Assembly (NCBI GenBank): GCA_018060985.1
Contig: JAGOUZ010000003.1
Coordinates: 47,356-111,355, forward strand
Origin: Minisyncoccota bacterium
GTDB lineage: Bacteria; Patescibacteriota; Minisyncoccia; Phycocordibacterales; SBAW01
Direction: 5' to 3'
DNA: 64,000 nt
Shown: piece by piece, positions 5,179 to 24,999 of the stretch
How the letters are laid out: each line of letters starts with the position of its first letter
Numbering within the stretch: the stretch's first letter is position 1
Translations under genes and position numbers: made by a program
Notes under the pieces: model-generated
What the model was told of the DNA's origin: nothing
What the model saw: only the letters and a program-made list of their open reading frames with translations
The model's database searches: none

Positions 5179-5724
5179 ATGGCTACCACAAAACTTTTAC
5201 AGGACCAGCAGAAGTCAGCTTTTAAAGATCTCAAAGACACCTTTGGGTGGACTAACTCTATGCAGACGCCCCGCATCGAAAAGGTGGTTGTCTCGGTTGG
5301 CGTTGGCAAGATGGCAAAAGAGAAGGGCCGTCAGGATATGGTGGCAAACCGCCTCTCAAAGATTACCGGCCAGAAGGCAGCTACTCGCGGTGCCAAGAAG
5401 GCTATTGCAACCTTTAAGACCCGCATCGGTGACCGTGTTGGCTACCAGGTAACGCTCCGTGGCGCACGTGCACAGGACTTTTTGAACCGCCTCGTGCACA
5501 TCGCACTCCCTCGCACCAAAGACTTCCGCGGCATCTCTGCCGATGCTATTGATGAGATGGGTAACTACACTCTTGGTATTAAAGAAAACACGGTGTTTCC
5601 AGAAACTGCAGACGAAGAACTTAAGGATGTGTTTGGTATGGCAGTAACGATTGTGACAACCGCTAAGAACAAGGCAGAGGCAAAGGCCTACCTAACCCAC
5701 CTCGGGTTTCCGTTTAAGAAATAA
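5179..5724 (+). CDS. rplE: 50S ribosomal protein L5
   Basis: 181-aa L5-like ORF. Confidence 0.95.
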   Translation: MATTKLLQDQQKSAFKDLKDTFGWTNSMQTPRIEKVVVSVGVGKMAKEKGRQDMVANRLSKITGQKAATRGAKKAIATFKTRIGDRVGYQVTLRGARAQDFLNRLVHIALPRTKDFRGISADAIDEMGNYTLGIKENTVFPETADEELKDVFGMAVTIVTTAKNKAEAKAYLTHLGFPFKK

Positions 5725-5740
5725 TCAGACGGGATACAAG

Positions 5741-5776
5741 AAAGGCCTTGCGGTTCATTCCGCAAGGCCTTTTTTC
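5741..5776. terminator. bidirectional hairpin/terminator after rplE
   Basis: AAAGGCCTTGCGG-ttcattc-CCGCAAGGCCTTTTTT; the stop codon of the antisense ORF lies in its loop. Confidence 0.6.
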
Positions 5777-6036
5777 ATCAGTCGCTCAGCTTCTGCTCGA
5801 TCCACTTCGTATCCCGAGAAACACTCGACAGGGCCATAGTCGAGGAGGCAGACACAGGTATCTTTATCACCGCAGTACTCCTCGTCGAAGGCCCAGGCGA
5901 TATAACGCCCGTCACTGGTGAGCATTAGGTGGTCTCCTTGGTGGTGCTCGGGCAGCAAGCAGGGAGGGAAGTCGTCCCCCTCACGCATGTACATTACTTC
6001 GAAGAAGGGTATGAGAATTCCGCAGGTTTCTCGCAT
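5755..6036 (-). CDS. hypothetical small Cys/His-containing protein encoded antisense inside the r-protein cluster
   Basis: 93-aa ORF MRETCGILIPFFEVMYMREGDDFPPCLLPEHHQGDH...CGDKDTCVCLLDYGPVECFSGYE with GGGAG SD-like element 7 nt upstream; G/C-ending codon usage unlike flanking r-protein genes; occupies the atypical 515-bp rplE-rpsN gap (ORF track extends it to 6270). Confidence 0.35.
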   Translation of the reverse strand: MRETCGILIPFFEVMYMREGDDFPPCLLPEHHQGDHLMLTSDGRYIAWAFDEEYCGDKDTCVCLLDYGPVECFSGYEVDRAEAERLMKKGLAE

Positions 6037-8336: not shown

Positions 8337-8765
8337 ATGCAGCTCAACGAACTCAAAAGAAAAACTTCAAATCGTAAGCAGAAGCGCGTAGGTCGCGGTC
8401 GCGGCTCCGGCAAAGGCAAAACCTCTGGTCGTGGTACCAAGGGTCAGAAGGCGCGCGCTGGTCACAAGATGATGCCGGCTATCCGCGAGCAGCTCAAGAA
8501 GCTTCCTAAGAAGCGCGGTTACAGCTTTAAGAGCATCAAGGATAAACCAACGGTTCTTAACGTTGCAACGCTTGAACGTTACTTTACGGCAGGCGACACT
8601 ATCAGCCCTGCAGTGCTTGTAGAGCGCGGCCTCCTCGTTAAGGGACATCCGGTTAAGATCTTGGGCGATGGCGAACTTGCTAAAAAACTTACTATTTCGG
8701 GCTGTGCAGTGTCTGCTTCTGCCCGTACAAAAATTGAAAAGGTGGGTGGTTCAGTGGTAGTGTAA
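8337..8765 (+). CDS. rplO: 50S ribosomal protein L15
   Basis: Gly/Arg-rich L15 N-terminus; follows rpsE directly with no L30 gene between. Confidence 0.95.
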   Translation: MQLNELKRKTSNRKQKRVGRGRGSGKGKTSGRGTKGQKARAGHKMMPAIREQLKKLPKKRGYSFKSIKDKPTVLNVATLERYFTAGDTISPAVLVERGLLVKGHPVKILGDGELAKKLTISGCAVSASARTKIEKVGGSVVV

Positions 8766-8853
8766 ACCTATCCTCTATATGAGCACTCCGTCTCATATAG
8801 CCGTCGTTCGCTCGGAGATTAAAATAAATTTTATCTCACTCGCTCACTAGACT

Positions 8854-10125
8854 ATGACTGGCTTTGGACAAAAACTAACACTCCTCCTCTCGGATCGAAG
8901 TATGCGCAACCGCATACTTTTTGTGCTCGGTGCCTTGGCCGTGTTTCGTGTTCTTTCAGCAATACCGATCCCTGGCATAGATGCGACCCAGCTCGAACTC
9001 TTTTTCTCTAACAACCAATTCTTCGGCCTCTTGAACCTATTTTCAGGCGGTGGCCTTTCAAGCCTTTCTATCGTGATGATGGGCGTTGCGCCATATATCA
9101 CTGCTTCGATTATCATGCAGCTCCTCACCCTTATGGTGCCGCGTTTTAAGCAGATGTATCAGGAAGAAGGGGAGCTCGGCCGCCAGAAGTTTGCGCAGTA
9201 TACGCGCTACCTTACCGTACCGCTCGCTATTGTTCAGGGTATCAGCTTCCTCCTTATCTTTGAGCGCGCAGGTGTACTTTCTATACTTTCGCCCTTCCAG
9301 TTTGCAACGAACCTCATTGTGGTGGCAGCAGGTTCGATCCTCCTTATGTGGATCGGCGAACTTATTTCGGAATATGGCATTGGTAACGGTGTCTCACTCA
9401 TTATCTTTGCGGGCATTGTGGCAGGACTCCCTACAAAGATCAGTCAGGCGCTCTTTACCTTCGACTCGACCCAGCTACCGGTATACCTCGCCTTTGCTGC
9501 CGCAGCTCTCCTTACGGTTGCTGCCGTGATCTTTATCTCTGAAGCCGAGCGTCCAGTGCCGGTAACCTACGCCAAACGCGTACGCGGTATGAAGTTCTTT
9601 GGCGGTGCCTCAACCTACTTGCCACTTCGCCTTAACCAGGCAGGCGTTATCCCGATTATCTTCGCACTCTCGTTCTTGCTGGTGCCGCAGATGTTTGCCA
9701 CCTTCTTCTCAACCTCAGGCAATGCAATGCTTGCCGGTATTGCGAACAGCATACTAGGTGCCCTTCAGAACATGACCATTTACGGCGGCCTCTACTTTAT
9801 TTTGGTGTTTTTCTTTACCTACTTCTACACCGCAGTTACGTTTGACCCACACCAGATCTCTGAAAACCTTCAGAAAAACGGCGCATTTATCCCGGGCGTA
9901 CGCCCAGGCGCTTCAACCCAGGAGCACTTGGGTAAGATCATCACTCGCACCACTTTTGTTGGCGCTCTCTTCCTTGCCATTATTGCCGTCTTGCCGATTG
10001 CCATGCAGTCGATAACCGGTATTCAAACGCTCGCTATCGGTGGTACGGCACTTCTCATTGTTGTCTCGGTTATCTTGGACCTCACGCGTCGCATTGACGC
10101 GCAGCTCTCGATTCGCGAGTACTAA
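8854..10125 (+). CDS. secY: preprotein translocase subunit SecY
   Basis: 423-aa multi-TM SecY-like ORF. Confidence 0.95.
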   Translation: MTGFGQKLTLLLSDRSMRNRILFVLGALAVFRVLSAIPIPGIDATQLELFFSNNQFFGLLNLFSGGGLSSLSIVMMGVAPYITASIIMQLLTLMVPRFKQMYQEEGELGRQKFAQYTRYLTVPLAIVQGISFLLIFERAGVLSILSPFQFATNLIVVAAGSILLMWIGELISEYGIGNGVSLIIFAGIVAGLPTKISQALFTFDSTQLPVYLAFAAAALLTVAAVIFISEAERPVPVTYAKRVRGMKFFGGASTYLPLRLNQAGVIPIIFALSFLLVPQMFATFFSTSGNAMLAGIANSILGALQNMTIYGGLYFILVFFFTYFYTAVTFDPHQISENLQKNGAFIPGVRPGASTQEHLGKIITRTTFVGALFLAIIAVLPIAMQSITGIQTLAIGGTALLIVVSVILDLTRRIDAQLSIREY

Positions 10126-10128
10126 CCC

Positions 10129-10701
10129 ATGGGTACGCTGATACTGATTGTCGGCTTACCAGGAAGCGGAAAAGGAACCCTCATTAAGTACGCGCGGGAA
10201 GTGTTTCCGGATTTTATATATCCAGCATCCTGGACTACCCGCGCAATGCGACCCGGGGAAGTAGAGGGAGAGGTATATCACTTTGCAACCAAGGAAGAAT
10301 TTGATGCAGCGGTAGAGCGCGGCGAATTTTTAGAGTGGGTTACGATCGACAACGGAAGTCAGTACGGCACGTTAAAAAAAGATTTTATTGAGCCGCTCAA
10401 AGCAGGGAAGCATGTCTTGCGCGAACTTGAAGTTGAAGGTGCTCGGGCGATGCGCAGCCTGCTGCCTGAGGCGCGCATTGTAAGTATCTTTTTGCCGGCT
10501 GGTACGTGGGAAGACCTAGAGGCGCGAATGCTCGCACGTGCTCCTATGAGCGAAGAAGAGCTTGCTGCCCGCAAAGCTCGGTATGAAAAAGAAGTCGCCT
10601 TTGAACAAGAAGCAGACCATGTGCTCAAAAATGAGTTCGGCAAACTTGATGAGACCAAGCAAAAGTTCGAAGAGCTTATTCGCAAAATCGTTCAAAATTA
10701 G
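10129..10701 (+). CDS. gmk: guanylate kinase
   Basis: P-loop GLPGSGKGT plus guanylate-kinase signature TTRAMRPGEVEGEVYHF. Confidence 0.85.
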   Translation: MGTLILIVGLPGSGKGTLIKYAREVFPDFIYPASWTTRAMRPGEVEGEVYHFATKEEFDAAVERGEFLEWVTIDNGSQYGTLKKDFIEPLKAGKHVLRELEVEGARAMRSLLPEARIVSIFLPAGTWEDLEARMLARAPMSEEELAARKARYEKEVAFEQEADHVLKNEFGKLDETKQKFEELIRKIVQN

Positions 10702-15649: not shown

Positions 15650-16165
15650 TTATTTTTTGCCCGCACGCTCGAGCACTGTGGAAAGGCCCTTGGGGCTCTT
15701 ACCGATAGGCTCGGCCAGTTTGTAGTCTCCCGGAATCAGCTTTAAAAATTGTTCAAGTCGGTCTTTAAGGAAGTTAAATTCCATGTACTTGTACCGCCCC
15801 CACAAAAAGAGGTCTACCTTGACCCGGTGCCCCTCGGCAAGCCATTCGGTTGCCTTACGGGCCTTAAGGTTAAGGTCGTTTTCGCCAGTCCCGATTTTAA
15901 CCTGGACCGACTTGGTTTCTGTGGTGTGCGATTTCGCCTTTATTTCACGGCGTTTTTTCTGCTGTTCGTATTGAAATTTACCATATTCCATGATCTTTGC
16001 AACCGGGGGGACCGCGTTGGGGGAGATCTCTATAAGGTCGAGGCCGAGGGCCTCGGCCTGGGAAATAGCCTCTGAAAGGGCGAGTACGCCAAGGTTTTCG
16101 CCCTCGGCGCCTATAACGCGTACTTCCGCGGAGCGGATCTGGTGGTTAATGCGAGTGTTATCCAA
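15650..16165 (-). CDS. infC: translation initiation factor IF-3
   Basis: IF3 N- and C-domains (EVRVIGAEGENLGVL...); start codon choice uncertain (IF3 commonly uses a non-AUG start). Confidence 0.9.
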   Translation of the reverse strand: MDNTRINHQIRSAEVRVIGAEGENLGVLALSEAISQAEALGLDLIEISPNAVPPVAKIMEYGKFQYEQQKKRREIKAKSHTTETKSVQVKIGTGENDLNLKARKATEWLAEGHRVKVDLFLWGRYKYMEFNFLKDRLEQFLKLIPGDYKLAEPIGKSPKGLSTVLERAGKK

Positions 16166-16335
16166 AGCTATAGTGACAAGACTATACCAACAAAAGCCGC
16201 TTTTGGCAATTTAGACCCTTTTCACCCCTTAAGCGGCACTGGGACGTTCTCTTTACTTTCATACTCCTTTTACTACTATGGGCCTTCGCCAAGGGCCGCG
16301 GTGGCTTTTGGTATTGAGTACAAGGAGAGTTCTTA

Positions 16336-16706
16336 TGAACGTTCGTAAAATGCTGATCGGCGCCGTGACTGCGGTAGCCACGATCGTTGCCGCTTCGACC
16401 GCATCTATCTCCGTTTCGGAAGCGAAACCGCTTTTCGCCAATGGGATCCACTTCCTCGGTAGCAAAGCGCCCAAGCCAGGCGCTACCCTGAAGTTCGGCT
16501 GTCCTGGAGTAGCGCTCGCCACCGGTGTCGTGAGTGACCGGCGGCATGCCATTGTCAACGGCGTGCAAGGGGGTGCCGTGTGCATTGCCGCGGTTTCGGC
16601 CGGAGCAATGCTCGGCGGCCCTGCGGGGGCTCTCGTGGGCGGTCTTGCTGCGGGCGTCATCGCGCCGGTGATCGCCGCTGGTCAGAAGCGCCGGCTGCAG
16701 CAATAG
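16336..16706 (+). CDS. small secreted/membrane glycine-zipper protein (hypothetical)
   Basis: Signal-peptide-like N-terminus then GGPAGALVGGLAAGVIAPVIAAG; GGAGAG RBS; the opposite-strand Arg-rich ORF looks like an antisense artefact. Confidence 0.5.
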
Positions 16707-16741
16707 CATTCCGGGTGTGTCTCTTGCGAGAGACGTCGTCA

Positions 16742-16785
16742 AAGGGTCGCGGACAAGAATATCCGCGGCCCTTTTTATTTTTTAT
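16742..16785 (+). terminator. intrinsic terminator
   Basis: AGGGTCGCGG...CCGCGGCCCT hairpin followed by TTTTTATTTTTT. Confidence 0.55.
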
Positions 16786-16944
16786 GTGTGCTTCACAAAA
16801 ACTCTTGTGATATCGAGTGATGCCGTTATACTAAAAAAAGAAGTTCTGTTAAGTAGAGCAAAAGTTGGGGCGATACTGCTTGGACTTTTTTTCTACTGAA
16901 CCGCAAATCCGGGGGAGCCGAGGGGGCAAAACCAGGAGTGCGTA

Positions 16945-17283
16945 ATGCGTATCATGAGTAACGTGTTGTTGGCAGTGTTGCCGCTTGTTGTGGCAACGCC
17001 AGCATTGGCGCTCAAGACCAGTTGGTATGAGTGCTGCAACCCCAAGACCGCTTACGGATATCCGTTTAGCGCGAATGACAAACACATTGCCGCATCCAAG
17101 AAGTTGGCCTATGGCACCAGGATCCTCCTTTCCTACAAGGGGAAGACGCTCTGCGTCACCGTGCGCGACAAGGGGCCATTCGTCGGTAACAGGGAGCTCG
17201 ACATCACCCGCGCCGGCGCCGAACATCTTGGCATGAAGAAGGCTGGCGTCGTCGACCTCCAGGCAAAAATCAACGGCTGCTAA
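16945..17283 (+). CDS. RlpA-like double-psi beta-barrel (DPBB) lipoprotein
   Basis: Signal peptide; SWYECCNP...AYGTRILLSYKGKTLCVTVRDKGPF...DITRAGAEHLG pattern of RlpA/3D-domain proteins. Confidence 0.75.
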   Translation: MRIMSNVLLAVLPLVVATPALALKTSWYECCNPKTAYGYPFSANDKHIAASKKLAYGTRILLSYKGKTLCVTVRDKGPFVGNRELDITRAGAEHLGMKKAGVVDLQAKINGC

Positions 17284-17331: not shown

Positions 17332-17349
17332 AATTGTGGAAGTGGGCGG

Positions 17350-17512
17350 GTTCAGTCACGAATAAACTTTTGTCGTCACAAAAGTTTTTCGCGACCCCGG
17401 CTCGCGGTTTTGCAATTGCAAAACATCGCTGCGCCCGTTCAACTCCGACGGCCGTGCCGGCCTTCTCACAGAAAATAAAAATAACCCTGCACAAGGCAGG
17501 GCATTTTTATTT
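17350..17512 (-). mobile_element. miniature insertion at the 3' end of ssrA (copy 1), flanked by direct repeats of the ssrA 3' terminus
   Basis: GTGGAAGTGGGCGG at 17336-17349 repeats 17515-17528 (ssrA acceptor/T-stem); the segment between carries a terminator hairpin, an inverted copy of the ssrA T-arm (17445-17460) and a multi-hairpin core with perfect palindrome TTTTGCAATTGCAAAA (17408-17423). Confidence 0.4.
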
Positions 17513-17890
17513 TGGTGGAAGTGGGCGGAGTTGAACCGCCGTGCAACACAAAAACTCAAAACATATCTACGAGAGGTAGACTACTTTAATTTCTTAGGCT
17601 CAATTGTAGAAAGTAGACAAAATAGGATTGAGTCGCAGCCTCTTAGTCTCAACTACAGAGCAAGACAGACTCTGTAGTCATAGCCCGTTATATAACACCC
17701 GCACCCAGAGCCGGGCTCGCTGGGGCAGACGTGACCTTAGGCGCGCGCAGTGGCGAACGAAAGATCATTCACCGAGAAATACGGTGACGTAACTGATTTT
17801 GCAGTTATGGTTTGAAGTTTTTTATAGCAGATCTCCACTGCTCTCCCGCATGTAATGCGAATATATGTATTGTCTAAGCCTGTCACTCCC
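17513..17890 (-). ncRNA. ssrA: tmRNA (SsrA), 378 nt
   Basis: Minus strand: 5' GGGAGUG pairs with 3' CACUUCC-A-CCA including G3:U70; T-arm GGCGG-UUCAACU-CCGCC (same loop as E. coli tmRNA); encoded CCA; intrinsic terminator immediately downstream; internal ORF GCA...UAA (plus coords 17802-17737) gives tag AKSVTSPYFSVNDLSFATARA; same strand as and downstream of smpB. Confidence 0.75.
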
Positions 17891-17932
17891 CAGCAGGGCG
17901 CGAGTGTCGTGCACTGGTGGGGAAGGCCTAGC

Positions 17933-17951
17933 GTCCATCGCTTGAATGTGG
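17933..17951. repeat. right arm of 19-bp inverted repeat bracketing the small acidic-protein gene
   Basis: GTCCATCGCTTGAATGTGG pairs with 18218-18236 (1 mismatch). Confidence 0.5.
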
Positions 17952-17980
17952 GGGTGACAACCGTAGTTGTCACCCATACC

Positions 17981-18199
17981 TCACCGGAAGATTTTGGTGA
18001 GGGGTTGTGGTTTGCCGGCCGGTTCCTGGCCGTACTGCTCGTACATCTGGTTAGCGAGCGGTTCGTAGTCGTGGTCGAGCATTCCGTCACCTCCGTCGAA
18101 GTCATCGAGGGAGATAGGGGATGCCTGCAGCCGTTCTCCTTCGGTAAAGGAGCGCTGGCTGGGGGGAAGACGTACGAGCTTCGCTCTTTTTGTGGTCAT
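17981..18199 (-). CDS. hypothetical small acidic protein (72 aa)
   Basis: MTTKRAKLVRLPPSQRSF...DDFDGGDGMLDHDYEPLANQMYEQYGQEP; AGGAGA SD 6 nt upstream of the ATG; G/C-rich codon third positions. Confidence 0.5.
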   Translation of the reverse strand: MTTKRAKLVRLPPSQRSFTEGERLQASPISLDDFDGGDGMLDHDYEPLANQMYEQYGQEPAGKPQPLTKIFR

Positions 18200-18217
18200 T
18201 GATTTCTCCTCTGCTGG

Positions 18218-18236
18218 CCACATTCAAACGATGGAC
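18218..18236. repeat. left arm of 19-bp inverted repeat
   Basis: CCACATTCAAACGATGGAC, reverse complement of 17933-17951; lies in the 5' UTR just upstream of the SD. Confidence 0.5.
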
Positions 18237-18294
18237 TCTGAACAAGTGCCGAAATGTGGGGCGAAGTCTCGTAAGGCTTCGCCAATCGTAGTTT

Positions 18295-18684
18295 CTACCT
18301 CCGCCCCTCAAGGATGTGGGGGTAGTAATGAGGTGGCTTAACCCACTCAGCGTCCTCGAAGTCTTCCTCCGAAGAATCTTCTGCCGGTGAGACCTCGGAC
18401 CCGTCGAGGATCACGCCGAACTCGTCGAACTCGACGACCTCGTCCTCCAGGCACTGGCCGTCGGAGCCGCAGTGGCACACCGCCCTCGAGCCGTTTCCGT
18501 CGTGGGCTTTTGTAAACCTCTTGTGACGGTCTTTTGGGTTGGCGTGGCACCCGCGGAGCTTTTTGCGTTGCTCTGCTGCTTCGCGCCGCCGCTCTTTTTG
18601 GTGTTCTTTTTGCCGTAGCCGAGCCTCTTCAGCCCGCAACTCTTCTGAGGTCGGACTACTGTATCTACTAAAGCTAAAAGGCAT
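18295..18684 (-). CDS. hypothetical protein: basic N-terminus, Cys/His cluster, acidic C-terminus (129 aa)
   Basis: MPFSFSRYSS...CHANPKDRHKRFTKAHDGNGSRAVCHCGSDGQC...EDSSEEDFEDAEW; strong SD AGAGGAGGG before ATG 18684; co-oriented between smpB and ssrA. Confidence 0.55.
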   Translation of the reverse strand: MPFSFSRYSSPTSEELRAEEARLRQKEHQKERRREAAEQRKKLRGCHANPKDRHKRFTKAHDGNGSRAVCHCGSDGQCLEDEVVEFDEFGVILDGSEVSPAEDSSEEDFEDAEWVKPPHYYPHILEGRR

Positions 18685-18736
18685 CTTGCCCTCCTCTTGC
18701 ACGAATGTACAACCGCACATTTCGGCACTTGTTCTT

Positions 18737-19180
18737 TTATTCGTTTTTCAAAGTTCTGCGCATCTCGCGCTCAGTATCTCTTTTCTTTAAGACGGCGCGC
18801 TTGTCGAATTTCTTTCTACCGCGCGCGACTGCGATACGGAGCTTGAGAACCTTGCCTTTATTATACACCGAAAGTGGCACTATTGTCAACCCTTTCTGCC
18901 CCTCAGCATCCGAGAGGAGGCCTATTTCCTTCTTGGTTAGAAGGAGTTTGCGGCTACGGGCCGGGTCGTACTCTTTTGGTATGTTCGCCGGCTGGTAGGG
19001 GGAGATAAGCATACCCACTACAAAGGCCTCGCCGCCACGCACTATTATATGTGAACCCTCAAGTTTGCCCTGGTGGTTGCGCAAACTCTTTACCTCGTGG
19101 CCAAACAGCTCTAAACCCGCCTCGTATTCCTCGAGGATGTCGTAGTCGAACCGCGCTTTTTTGTGCTCAATTAAGTTCAC
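18737..19180 (-). CDS. smpB: SsrA-binding protein SmpB
   Basis: 147 aa, typical SmpB (FDYDILEEYEAGLELFGHEVKSLR...). Confidence 0.95.
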   Translation of the reverse strand: MNLIEHKKARFDYDILEEYEAGLELFGHEVKSLRNHQGKLEGSHIIVRGGEAFVVGMLISPYQPANIPKEYDPARSRKLLLTKKEIGLLSDAEGQKGLTIVPLSVYNKGKVLKLRIAVARGRKKFDKRAVLKKRDTEREMRRTLKNE

Positions 19181-19194
19181 AAGGCTAGGATAGC

Positions 19195-21198
19195 ATGCAG
19201 AAAACCTTTTGCCCCATAACGCAAGAATGCTATACTCTTCAACACATGCCTGACCCTAACAGGAACAGCAAAACGCCCGATGGCGGCAAGCGTCGTGGCA
19301 ACATGCCCTCTATGCCTAAGATGCCAAAGAGCGACTCATTTTGGGTCAACCTAGCCACGAGCGTGCTCGTGCTCCTTTTAATAGCCGGTGCCTACACCTA
19401 CTTTATGGGCACCACCGAAGAGGCTCCACAAGAGGTGCCGATTTCTCAGTTGGCGCAGGATATAGAGATAGGTAAAGTCGCATCTATTATTGTATCTGGC
19501 GAAGAGGTGGAGGCGACATACTCCGACCAGTCTAAAAAGAAGAGTAAAAAAGAGCCAAGTACGGCTCTCACGCAGACTTTGACCAACTACGGCGTCTCTA
19601 AGCTCGCGCTTTCTAAAGTTTCTATCGATATTAAGCGCGAGACGGGCTTCCAGTTTTGGCTGGTAACGTTGGCACCATTTTTGGCACCAATACTTCTCCT
19701 CGTCTTCTTTGTCTGGTATCTCTCGCGCCAAGTGCGCGGCGCAGGTGTTCAGGCATTTTCATTCGGTCAGAGTAAGCCACGCGTTATCGACCCCAACGAC
19801 GCAACCTCGCGCGTAACCTTTAAAGATGTTGCAGGCGCTAAGGAAGCAAAGGAAGAGCTGCTCGAGATCGTCGACTTTTTGAAGAATCCTAAAAAGTTTT
19901 TGGACATCGGCGCACGCATTCCAAAAGGCATCTTGCTTATGGGTGCACCGGGTACTGGTAAAACCATGTTGGCCCGTGCGGTCGCGGGGGAAGCAGGGGT
20001 GCCATTCTTCTCTATCTCCGGCTCGGAGTTTGTGGAGATGTTTGTGGGCGTTGGCGCATCTCGCGTGCGCGACCTCTTTTTGACTGCTAAAAAAGCAGCG
20101 CCTTCTATTATCTTCGTCGACGAAATTGATGCCGTAGGTCGCATCCGTGGTACGGGCGTAGGCGGCGGCAACGACGAGCGCGAGCAGACCCTGAACCAGA
20201 TTCTTGTCGAGATGGACGGCTTTGAGCCGAACGAGAAAGTGATTGTGATGGCTGCAACCAACCGACCGGACGTGCTCGACCCTGCACTCCTTCGCCCAGG
20301 CCGCTTTGACCGCCGCGTCACTATCGACCTACCAGACCGCCAGGACCGCCTAGAGATTTTGAAGATCCACGCACGCAAGAAACCGTTTGCCGAAGACGTT
20401 AACCTAGAAGTTATTGCCGAGCGCACGCCGGGCTTTAGTGGTGCCGACCTCTACAGCCTTATGAACGAGGGCGCTATTTTGGCCGCCCGCGAGAACCGCC
20501 GCACTATTGCGCAGTACGACCTGATCCGTTCCATAGAGAAAGTGATGCTCGGCCCTGAACGCCGCTCACATGTTTTGAATGTAAAAGAGAAAGAAATTAC
20601 GGCGTATCACGAAGCAGGCCATGCACTTGTGGCGAGCGTGCTCCCATATGCTGACCCGGTACATAAAATTTCTATTATTTCGCGCGGCCGAGCTGCGGGC
20701 TATACGCTGAAGCTCCCGTTTGAAGATAAGAAGATGCAGAGCAAACGCGAGTTCTTGGACGACATTGCCATGAGCCTTGGCGGCTATGTTGCTGAAAAGA
20801 TGGTATTTAAAGATGTAACCACTGGACCGTCGAACGACTTGCAGGTGTTGACCAGCCTCGCGCGCAGTATGGTGACCCGCTGGGGCATGAGCGACAAGAT
20901 GGGCACTATCGCACTTGAGGGTGATGGCGGCCGCGCGATGTTTGGCCGCGGCATAGAGGGGAGCGAGTATTCTGAAAAAGTGTCTTCAGAGATTGATACT
21001 GAAGTAAAGAAAATAATCGACGAAGCGTACGAAAAAGCAGAACGGATTATCACGGATCACCGCAAAGCACTTAACGCGATTGCTGAGCGCCTGGTAGAAG
21101 TGGAGACCATTGAGCGCGAGGAGTTTGAAAACTTGTTGATTGCCCACGGCATCATTCCCAAGAAAAAGCAGGACATTGAGCATCAGCCAATTGCCTAG
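19195..21198 (+). CDS. ftsH: ATP-dependent zinc metalloprotease FtsH
   Basis: Two TM segments, AAA Walker [14 protein letters not shown] zinc motif; exact start among several N-terminal Met uncertain. Confidence 0.95.
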
Positions 21199-24682: not shown

Positions 24683-24727
24683 CAAAAGACAGAAAGACCT
24701 GCCCTGCGGCAGGTTTTCTGCTTTTGT
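24683..24727 (+). terminator. hairpin/terminator after tRNA-Ile
   Basis: CACAAAAGACAGAAAGACCUGCC-cugc-GGCAGGUUUUCUGCUUUUGUG long imperfect hairpin with U-run. Confidence 0.5.
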
Positions 24728-24810
24728 GGGAGGCGGAGCGATGTTTTGCAATTGCAAAACCGCGAGCCGGGGTCGCGGGCGACTTTGCTGACGAGCAAAG
24801 TTGACCTGTG
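24697..24810 (+). mobile_element. miniature insertion at the 3' end of tRNA-Ile (copy 2), flanked by a direct repeat of the tRNA 3' terminus
   Basis: CCCACAAAAGACAGAAAG (24679-24696) repeated as ACCACATAAAGACAGAAAA (24811-24829); contains the core GGCGGAGCGATG-TTTTGCAATTGCAAAA-CCGCGAGCCGGGGTCGCG, 43/45 identical to copy 1. Confidence 0.4.
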
Positions 24811-24999
24811 ACCACATAAAGACAGAAAACTGTGCATAACCGTGCTTGTAGCTAAGCGGGAGAAGGAGGATAGTTATGGGACAGGGCTGAGGGGCCTAAA
24901 ACAGGTTTTATCAGCAGTATGGATGTTGGGTGGCGGGAAACCGCCCTTATTCATATCAGGAATTCGTTTGCTCTTTATTTATTTTTATAATTGCGTCCC

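Follow-up and report, generated by a model that had tools for sequence, protein, structure and literature searches.

The 64-kb stretch of contig JAGOUZ010000003.1 (hereafter the window) very probably carries, on its minus strand, a functional ssrA gene for a standard one-piece transfer-messenger RNA (tmRNA) of a Paceibacteria bacterium (Patescibacteria, or Candidate Phyla Radiation, CPR), partnered with the SmpB protein encoded upstream. The gene is an ordinary object that is detectable with standard tools, and the ending of its tag, at first sight atypical, is typical for the lineage. From established tmRNA biology, the RNA would be charged with alanine and would enter stalled ribosomes together with SmpB; the ribosome would then switch to the GCA codon, append A-AKSVTSPYFSVNDLSFATARA to the stalled protein and terminate.

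ARAGORN calls a tmRNA at exactly 17513..17890, its coding part lying at RNA positions 89-154 and giving the tag AKSVTSPYFSVNDLSFATARA*, and the Rfam model RF00023 matches between the same two ends over model positions 1-374 of 374, at 90.4 bits (E 8.4e-34; the curated gathering score is 47 bits). The tRNA-like domain, the first pseudoknot (PK1) and the tag all align to this model. A preliminary description, made from the sequence alone, had placed a 378-nt tmRNA here, co-oriented with smpB and about 850 nt downstream of it, with an encoded CCA and then an intrinsic terminator; all of this is borne out, the two genes lying 846 nt apart on the same strand. No second tmRNA was found within the window by ARAGORN or Rfam. 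The encoded SmpB is 100% identical to the NCBI entry 'SsrA-binding protein SmpB [Candidatus Pacebacteria bacterium]', which confirms the CPR affiliation implied in the preliminary description, and the smpB-adjacent arrangement of ssrA is conserved in about 30 genomes.

Relatives were taken as the loci around SmpB relatives in species-representative genomes (cited here by their L numbers), with tmRNAs located by ARAGORN and Rfam. The tmRNAs of 24 Patescibacteria (Paceibacteria) relatives, with 56-80% SmpB identity and a tmRNA adjoining smpB, were aligned with MAFFT. The pairing of GGGAGUG with CACUUCC-A-CCA that had been proposed at the outset is present, and its G3:U70 pair is kept in 24/24 relatives; the T-arm described as preceding the acceptor strand is likewise in place, its loop UUCAACU being the same as in E. 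coli tmRNA. The acceptor stem is 99% paired, with compensatory changes that include pairs 4 and 5, and the T-stem is 93% paired with compensatory changes in all 5 pairs. The helices of PK1 are 79-86% paired (compensatory in 9/10 pairs) and those of PK4 88-91%; PK2 and PK3 reach 52-68%, a low figure attributed to the MAFFT alignment in variable regions, and compensatory changes occur in all of these pseudoknots. RNAalifold finds compensatory changes in 45/54 predicted pairs. When the explicit structure is scored, including PK1-PK4 and a hairpin in the tag, 80.2% of cells are paired vs 41-50% in slid controls, in which pairing partners are shifted by 1-3 columns; 62/79 pairs show compensatory changes, all 14 helices covary, and 0/500 shuffles match the observed values. 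The covariance-model E-value and the covariation together exclude chance for the tmRNA features. The helices are maintained by compensatory changes, and the tag is maintained as a peptide.

On sequence grounds the resume codon, GCA, is not in doubt, because it stands 4 nt after an invariant A, opens a peptide conserved throughout the clade and is followed by substitutions of the coding type. In E. coli, A86 (with U85), 4 nt ahead of resume codon G90, fixes the reading frame like a ruler (PMC2481249); here the corresponding A85 and the resume G89 are invariant in 24/24, and T84 is at least 90% conserved. The preliminary description was thus right about an internal GCA frame with a UAA stop, and its uncertainty as to the resume codon falls away. 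The alignment with related genomes that it called for gives the conserved peptide from the aligned resume codon in 23/24 tmRNAs, and the 21-residue tag is identical in the three closest relatives, L082, L085 and L086, which were obtained by an exact-protein look-up (SmpB 86-93% and tmRNA 89-94% identical to those of the window). Their tags differ synonymously from the window's, for example GAT to GAC and CGC to CGA. Across the 11 sequences with an ungapped tag frame, codon differences are synonymous vs nonsynonymous in 290 vs 362 cases in frame (44% synonymous), and in 103 vs 518 and 68 vs 531 cases in the other two frames (11-17%), both of which are interrupted by stops. A hairpin inside the tag frame also covaries (CACCG/CGGUG, CGCCG/CGGCG, CUCCA/UGGAG), which accounts for the S/T/G and V/A changes at tag residues 10-11.

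Of particular interest is the end of the tag. Its C-terminal stretch is …SPYFSVNDLSFATARA, with A-R-A as the final residues, so that the last residue is small and non-polar as in ClpX-type tags and the L/V-A-A ending itself is missing. The clade consensus is (A/G)K(S/T)V-x-SP(Y/F)F-x-x-ND(L/F)-x-FA(T/Y)A(R/K/S)(A/G/S); the relatives' tags have 21-28 residues with conserved Y/F positions, and end in ATARA, ATARG, ATARS, AYAKA, AYARA, ALARA, FARA, ATASA, AYASA or AYAIA, with FALA, LAFA, VYA, FAYA or SAYA in a few. Four different codons, CGC, CGA, AGG and AAG, specify the basic residue at -2, so that selection acts on the amino acid rather than on the nucleotide sequence. Most relatives share the final Ala of this tag; four of the 23 with the conserved tag have Gly or Ser instead. 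A hydrophobic last residue is the norm among tags, Carsonella alone having a charged one (Hudson et al., PMC4131195). To judge from these sequences, …A-(R/K)-A is the normal ending in Paceibacteria, atypical only by comparison with model organisms: the departure from the LAA/VAA type that was first pointed out is real, and within the lineage it is the conserved norm.

The doubt expressed earlier about adaptor specificity persists. FtsH is the only AAA+ protease found in the window by a motif scan; the same crude scan of the 64 kb gave no signature of ClpP, ClpX, Lon, HslV or SspB. The ftsH gene is divergent from smpB, and the order ftsH-smpB-ssrA holds in 26/26 related loci whose contig extends far enough. 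A literature search on the protease content of Patescibacteria yielded nothing relevant. Proteins with an ssrA tag are also substrates of FtsH and Lon in E. coli, and in M. pneumoniae, which is without ClpXP, it is Lon that degrades a long aromatic tag in vivo (PMC8403727). In the H. pylori tag, …AKAA, altering the terminal AA stabilises the tagged protein weakly, and the terminal AA is not central to recognition (PMC2584231). In the predicted degron, Ala would form the small C-terminal residue, with a basic residue at -2 and, further upstream, an aromatic and hydrophobic block, SPYF…ND(L/F)xFA. We infer that the protease acting on it is an AAA+ enzyme that has co-evolved with the tag and is not a ClpX of the E. 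coli type; these observations hint weakly at FtsH or Lon as the likeliest candidates.

A different view would be that the tag is translated without being a proteolysis signal, trans-translation serving ribosome release only and the conservation arising from RNA structure or some other role. The charged residue at -2 does depart from the ClpX rule, and tagging is dispensable for H. pylori viability (PMC2584231). In relative L012 (tmRNA at 5500-5876) a stop follows seven tag codons, GKSVASP*, with the hairpin retained there (CGCCUU/AAGGCG); this may be a tag truncation or a sequencing error. However, the residues outside the hairpin (N-D, F-A and A-(R/K)-A) are kept through synonymous and multi-nucleotide codon changes, and the last residue is small or non-polar in 23/23 relatives with the conserved tag, as expected of a degron, so that this view is improbable. 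Several points nevertheless weigh against our own interpretation. The L012 stop means that a full-length tag is not indispensable everywhere; the hairpin in the tag, not peptide selection, imposes part of the tag's conservation; and pairing in PK2 and PK3 is low in the alignment. The adjacency of ftsH and smpB may be plain synteny, and ClpXP or Lon may well be encoded beyond the 64-kb window. We could find no tested precedent for a basic -2 residue, and the tag might be a poor degron, or the conservation at -2 might serve another purpose. All functional statements made here are inferred.

That the tmRNA is real and resumes at another codon or in another frame, with a shorter or LAA-like tag for instance, is very unlikely. 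Such a choice could be read from ARAGORN, which missed some 9-12 tmRNAs of the clade that Rfam found (among them L006, L008, L009, L013, L015, L021-L023 and L026, at 61-105 bits) and chose other frames in L012, L019 and L082/L083, and from an ending unlike that of the textbook. Yet the canonical aligned codon gives the conserved tag in those very relatives, the invariant A lies exactly 4 nt upstream of the GCA, the other frames contain stops and have few synonymous changes, and no other frame of the RNA produces a conserved peptide. The four ARAGORN frames were rejected as tool errors and the aligned resume codon was used instead.

CCA is encoded in the window and in L004, L011 and L012, and is absent from the closest relatives and from most others: the gene ends in CCAC before TAA in L082 and in CCACC before TA in L085 and L086. 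Since its encoding is so patchy, the encoded CCA is incidental, and CCA normally must be added after transcription. Downstream, the final 14 nt of ssrA are repeated at a distance of 165 nt with an element in between, and a duplication of the T-loop-to-3'-end segment, as at integration sites, could suggest that this copy is decaying or no longer works (disrupted by a 3' mobile element, for instance) and that the working ssrA lies elsewhere in a genome of which 64 kb are in view. The upstream copy is complete, however, with a full-length score, every helix, the tag and the terminator, the same smpB-adjacent arrangement recurs in the relatives, and the window holds no other tmRNA; a decayed copy is accordingly hard to credit. 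The idea that the region is protein-coding and its tmRNA features incidental can be set aside almost with certainty, for the 122-aa open reading frame (ORF) on which it rests, with its ATG start and 122 codons, runs over the inserted module B in a frame other than that of the module's own Shine-Dalgarno-preceded ORF, then over the conserved leader and 154 nt of tmRNA, could not exist in insert-free relatives with a 38-60 nt smpB-ssrA spacer, and would leave an RF00023 score and covariation that cannot be incidental. It had been singled out from the start as a misrepresentation of the locus with the tag frame as its C-terminus, correctly: the ORF exists and is spurious.

Table 1. Coordinates of features in the window and, where so marked, in related loci
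Feature	Position	Strand	Basis or remark
ssrA, one-piece tmRNA gene, 378 nt	17513..17890	-	ARAGORN, Rfam RF00023, covariation in 24 relatives
Acceptor stem 5' strand GGGAGUG, with G3 of the G3:U70 alanine identity pair	17884..17890	-	G:U invariant 24/24
PK1 (AGCAG/CUGCU + UGGAG/CUUCA), just 5' of resume codon	17813..17842	-	Helices 4-6
Frame-setting U-A at -5/-4 of resume codon	17806-17807	-	Alignment
Tag frame: resume codon GCA, 21 codons (AKSVTSPYFSVNDLSFATARA), stop UAA	17737..17802	-	ARAGORN, alignment, codon table
Hairpin inside tag frame, UCACCG-UAUUUCU-CGGUGA	17769..17787	-	Helix 7; also a terminator-like stem in scan
PK2 17682-17724, PK3 17646-17678, PK4 17581-17632	17581..17724	-	Helices 8-13
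T-arm GGCGG-UUCAACU-CCGCC, 3' acceptor strand CACUUCC, discriminator A, encoded CCA	17513..17540	-	Sequence, covariation
Intrinsic terminator hairpin and T-run, directly 3' of CCA	17502..17484	-	Sequence and terminator scan
Spurious 122-aa ORF, ATG start: module B to leader to tmRNA, ending at tag stop	17737..18105	-	ORF list
Native pre-tmRNA leader, CUAGGCCUUCCCCACCAG…CUGCUG	17891..17931	-	Kept in insert-free relatives
Module B: 22-nt arms 18218-18239 + 17930-17951, Shine-Dalgarno, 72-aa ORF 17981-18199, GC hairpin	17930..18239	-	
Module A: 22-nt arms 18713-18734 + 18240-18261, Shine-Dalgarno, 129-aa orphan ORF 18295-18684, GC hairpin	18240..18734	-	
smpB, 147 aa	18737..19180	-	PF01668 match
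Perfect sigma-70 consensus TTGACA-N18-TATAAT within smpB, toward ssrA	18860..18889	-	12/12 matches, promoter scan
ftsH, divergent from smpB	19195..21198	+	ORF list, motif scan; synteny in 26 related loci
3'-flank element	17336..17470	-	Repeats, model R1
Parts of the element: antisense ssrA T-arm copy; structured 82-nt core; sense T-loop-to-3'-end copy	17432-17447; 17354-17435; 17336-17353	-	
Second window copy of the element, after tRNA-Ile(UAU)	24684-24830	+	
infC	15650-16165	-	
ssrA 3' end sites compared	window 17513-17515; L082 4354-4360; L085 1870-1876; L086 5044-5050		
Related modules in relatives	L002 3714-4151; L005 5439-5934; L013 5447-5791; L018 5440-5769; L027 5446-5765; L086 4008-4318		
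GIY-YIG spacer ORFs in relatives	L004 ~940-1291; L022 ~5470-5811; L086 ~4340-4669		
Loci with the element	L004, L008, L010, L019, L021-L023, L082, L085 + ~38 metagenome loci among L087-L166		

The apparent promoter of ssrA lies inside smpB. The two hexamers of a perfect sigma-70 consensus coincide with smpB codons 98-99 (Leu-Thr) and 106-107 (Tyr-Asn), and across 28 smpB genes TTG-ACA is kept in 28/28, TAT in 27/28 and AAT in 26/26, with the neighbouring codons varying freely. For synonymous conservation the four hexamer codons rank 1-4 of the 62 degenerate codons for conserved residues, which, if ranks were random, would happen by chance in 1 of C(62,4) cases, or about 1 in 558,000. Most relatives have a spacer of 38-60 nt between smpB and ssrA, without room for a promoter. 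A conserved ssrA promoter embedded in smpB is therefore likely on this pattern of codon usage. Transcription would start from it, giving a pre-tmRNA with a leader that begins about 115 nt upstream of the stop codon of smpB and, in this genome, would be long enough to include two small-ORF modules closed by 22-bp stems. The writing of a promoter in smpB codons would be a neat case of dual coding.

These two modules, which lie between the smpB stop and the native leader, make up the gap of about 850 nt between the genes. Insert-free relatives share a leader of about 40 nt, CTAGGCCyTCCCCACCAG…CTGCTG immediately before GGGAGT; it is present in the window as well, and there, in the predicted fold, it pairs as a hairpin with the first Gs of the tmRNA. 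The two brackets of the modules rank above every other inverted repeat in the window, and the same arm family (GAAyrAGTGyynrAAATGTGG / CCACATTTynrrCACTyrTTC) occurs at the same site in L002, L005, L013, L018, L027 and L086; the arms, of 19-22 nt, change together, and the cargo differs among genomes. The L086 module ORF is homologous to that of module B (…PLDKIFR), and the module-A ORF has relatives in L002 and L005 only, at 26-29% identity. The spacer ORFs match no Pfam family, nor did tblastn find a match in the relatives at 1e-3, and a profile search with the module-A ORF through 5.8 billion proteins found nothing beyond three query-family clusters. The close relatives L082 and L085 are without the insert, and so the modules come and go quickly. 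In the fold of the whole spacer (z = -8), both brackets close their modules in the minimum-free-energy and the centroid structure alike; of the positions in the arms that deviate from Watson-Crick pairing, 4 read as G·U on the sense strand and 1 as A·C, which lends weak support to pairing at the RNA level.

Inserts are known in the precursors of stable RNAs, in the intervening sequences (IVS) of bacterial 23S rRNA and in the protein-coding insertions of CPR rRNA genes, with the ends paired in a long stem. The stems of 23S IVS are likely RNase III substrates, a small ORF is present at times, and occurrence is patchy among close relatives. The leader modules are like these in being end-paired, ORF-bearing and patchily present; unlike 23S IVS, they lie in the 5' leader of pre-tmRNA, outside the mature RNA, their ORFs are orphans, and their processing is putative. 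With low to moderate confidence, we regard them as IVS-like passengers whose stems would be processed, probably by RNase III, in a way that spares tmRNA maturation. Two other identities were rejected: dispersed repeats or miniature inverted-repeat transposable elements, given that a plain regular-expression scan plus blastn over 789 kb of DNA found the motif as pairs solely at this spacer, and invertible segments, the ORF being on the smpB strand in 8/8 modules. The same spacer holds a GIY-YIG ORF (PF01541, 85-92 aa) in L004, L022 and L086; this insert has an inverted repeat of its own (CCTAAArCATG… / …TGTTTTAGG) and replaces most of the native leader.

The element on the 3' side of ssrA has a core laid out as GGCG.AGCGAUG, a hairpin, CCGCGAGCCGGGGUCGC, a long hairpin and GUGACC. 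With a covariance model of this 82-nt core, R1, further copies were located in relatives down to 60% SmpB identity, both downstream of ssrA and next to tRNA-Ile(UAU). Over 15 copies, 96% of cells are paired vs 36-41% in slid controls and 30/32 pairs are compensatory, in an alignment that was fitted to the model and so favours structure. Metagenomes scanned for an invariant 17-mer yielded 44 copies that also passed R1, spread over about 38 loci. About 27/36 metagenome loci have, on the strand of the element and 24-90 nt before it, a tRNA or tmRNA gene, which can be of almost any specificity; some of these loci are tRNA-element-tRNA-element arrays. In 11/33 pairs the core, ending in GTGACC, runs straight into a sequence identical to the T-loop-to-3'-end segment of the gene upstream (sense-copy matches 12/12 in those 11 pairs; mismatched controls 4/1054), and the sequence just 5' of the core carries the antisense of the same segment. 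The window's copy after ssrA shares 92% identity with the corresponding copy of L004, a distant relative, and only 69% with that of L082, a close one. Among close relatives, copies are exchanged at the same locus. L086 is an empty site for the ssrA-flank element, and the tRNA-Ile(UAU) site of L082 carries a half-deleted copy, not an empty site. No Rfam family matches the element even at E≤1; a 'tmRNA_permuted' match (18 bits, E 0.41) overlaps the real ssrA 3' end and was discarded.

Genetic elements are known to integrate into the T-loop-to-3'-end segment of tRNA and tmRNA genes, with att-site duplications of which the upstream copy keeps the gene intact. The present case is similar in that a direct repeat of the segment flanks the insert and the upstream gene is intact. 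It differs in the size of the insert (about 130-170 nt, without an integrase), in its covarying RNA-like core and antisense target copy, and in its occurrence at many tRNA genes, each with that gene's own repeat. Three identities are conceivable for the element: a mobile or integrative mini-element, an RNA made up of scaffold and guide, or a 3' trailer that acts in cis.

As to the wider neighbourhood, infC lies 0.4-4.5 kb downstream of ssrA in relatives, and from this variable distance the 3' side of ssrA can be taken as a variable region. In the window, 16182-17283, between infC and the 3' element, holds two plus-strand ORFs, one for a 142-aa Gly/Ala-rich putative membrane protein without a Pfam match and one for a 112-aa DPBB_1 (RlpA-like) protein; both are absent downstream of ssrA in most relatives and may be island-like cargo. 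The tRNA-Ile(UAU) gene usually lies a few kb beyond ftsH (L002-L028). The 16S rRNA gene of L028, a Parcubacteria relative (8514-10429, minus strand), has a group I intron match at 9247-9464 (50.9 bits), in line with the insertions known in CPR rRNA genes. Among the non-Patescibacteria outgroup loci, L029-L081, ssrA is near smpB in two, hence they give no useful tag background.

Compared with the SsrA of E. coli, the archetype of RF00023, this tmRNA has the same acceptor G3:U70, T-arm, PK1 before the resume codon, U-A at -5/-4, GCA resume codon, short frame with UAA, PK2-PK4, SmpB partner and Ala-ended tag. Unlike the E. coli gene, it has 21 tag codons instead of 10 and A-R-A instead of L-A-A, and lies directly downstream of smpB, with an apparent promoter inside smpB and ORF modules in its leader. 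The Mycoplasma tags, such as the Lon-read tag of M. pneumoniae with 27 residues, resemble it in being long and aromatic or hydrophobic near the end, in a reduced genome (PMC8403727); their end is …YAFA-like vs …FAYA(R/K)A here, both departing from the ClpX LAA rule (PMC8403727), and the basic -2 residue is not a Mycoplasma feature. The …AKAA tags of Helicobacter and Campylobacter share with it a basic residue within the last four positions, and no SspB-type motif is expected in either. In those tags, however, the basic residue stands at -3 instead of -2, the upstream parts are different, and the two lineages have no close relationship.

A tentative proposal, which we hold to be doubtful, is that Paceibacteria possess a degron class of their own, an aromatic block plus A-(R/K)-A, read by FtsH or Lon and not by ClpXP, with ssrA acting as a hub for two undescribed element types, the self-closing ORF modules of the pre-tmRNA leader and the structured element found after ssrA and many tRNA genes. 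The 3' element is widespread in metagenomes and without an Rfam family; if mobile or guide-like, it would represent a new way of targeting tRNA genes. The main value of the locus is a clean annotation, that is, a normal tmRNA, a tag frame that can be trusted and a 122-aa ORF to be dropped. Beyond that, the conserved basic residue at -2 shows that the textbook "LAA" rule fails for a large uncultured lineage, and the lineage's tag would offer a concrete degron with which to identify the protease of tagged proteins in reduced genomes.

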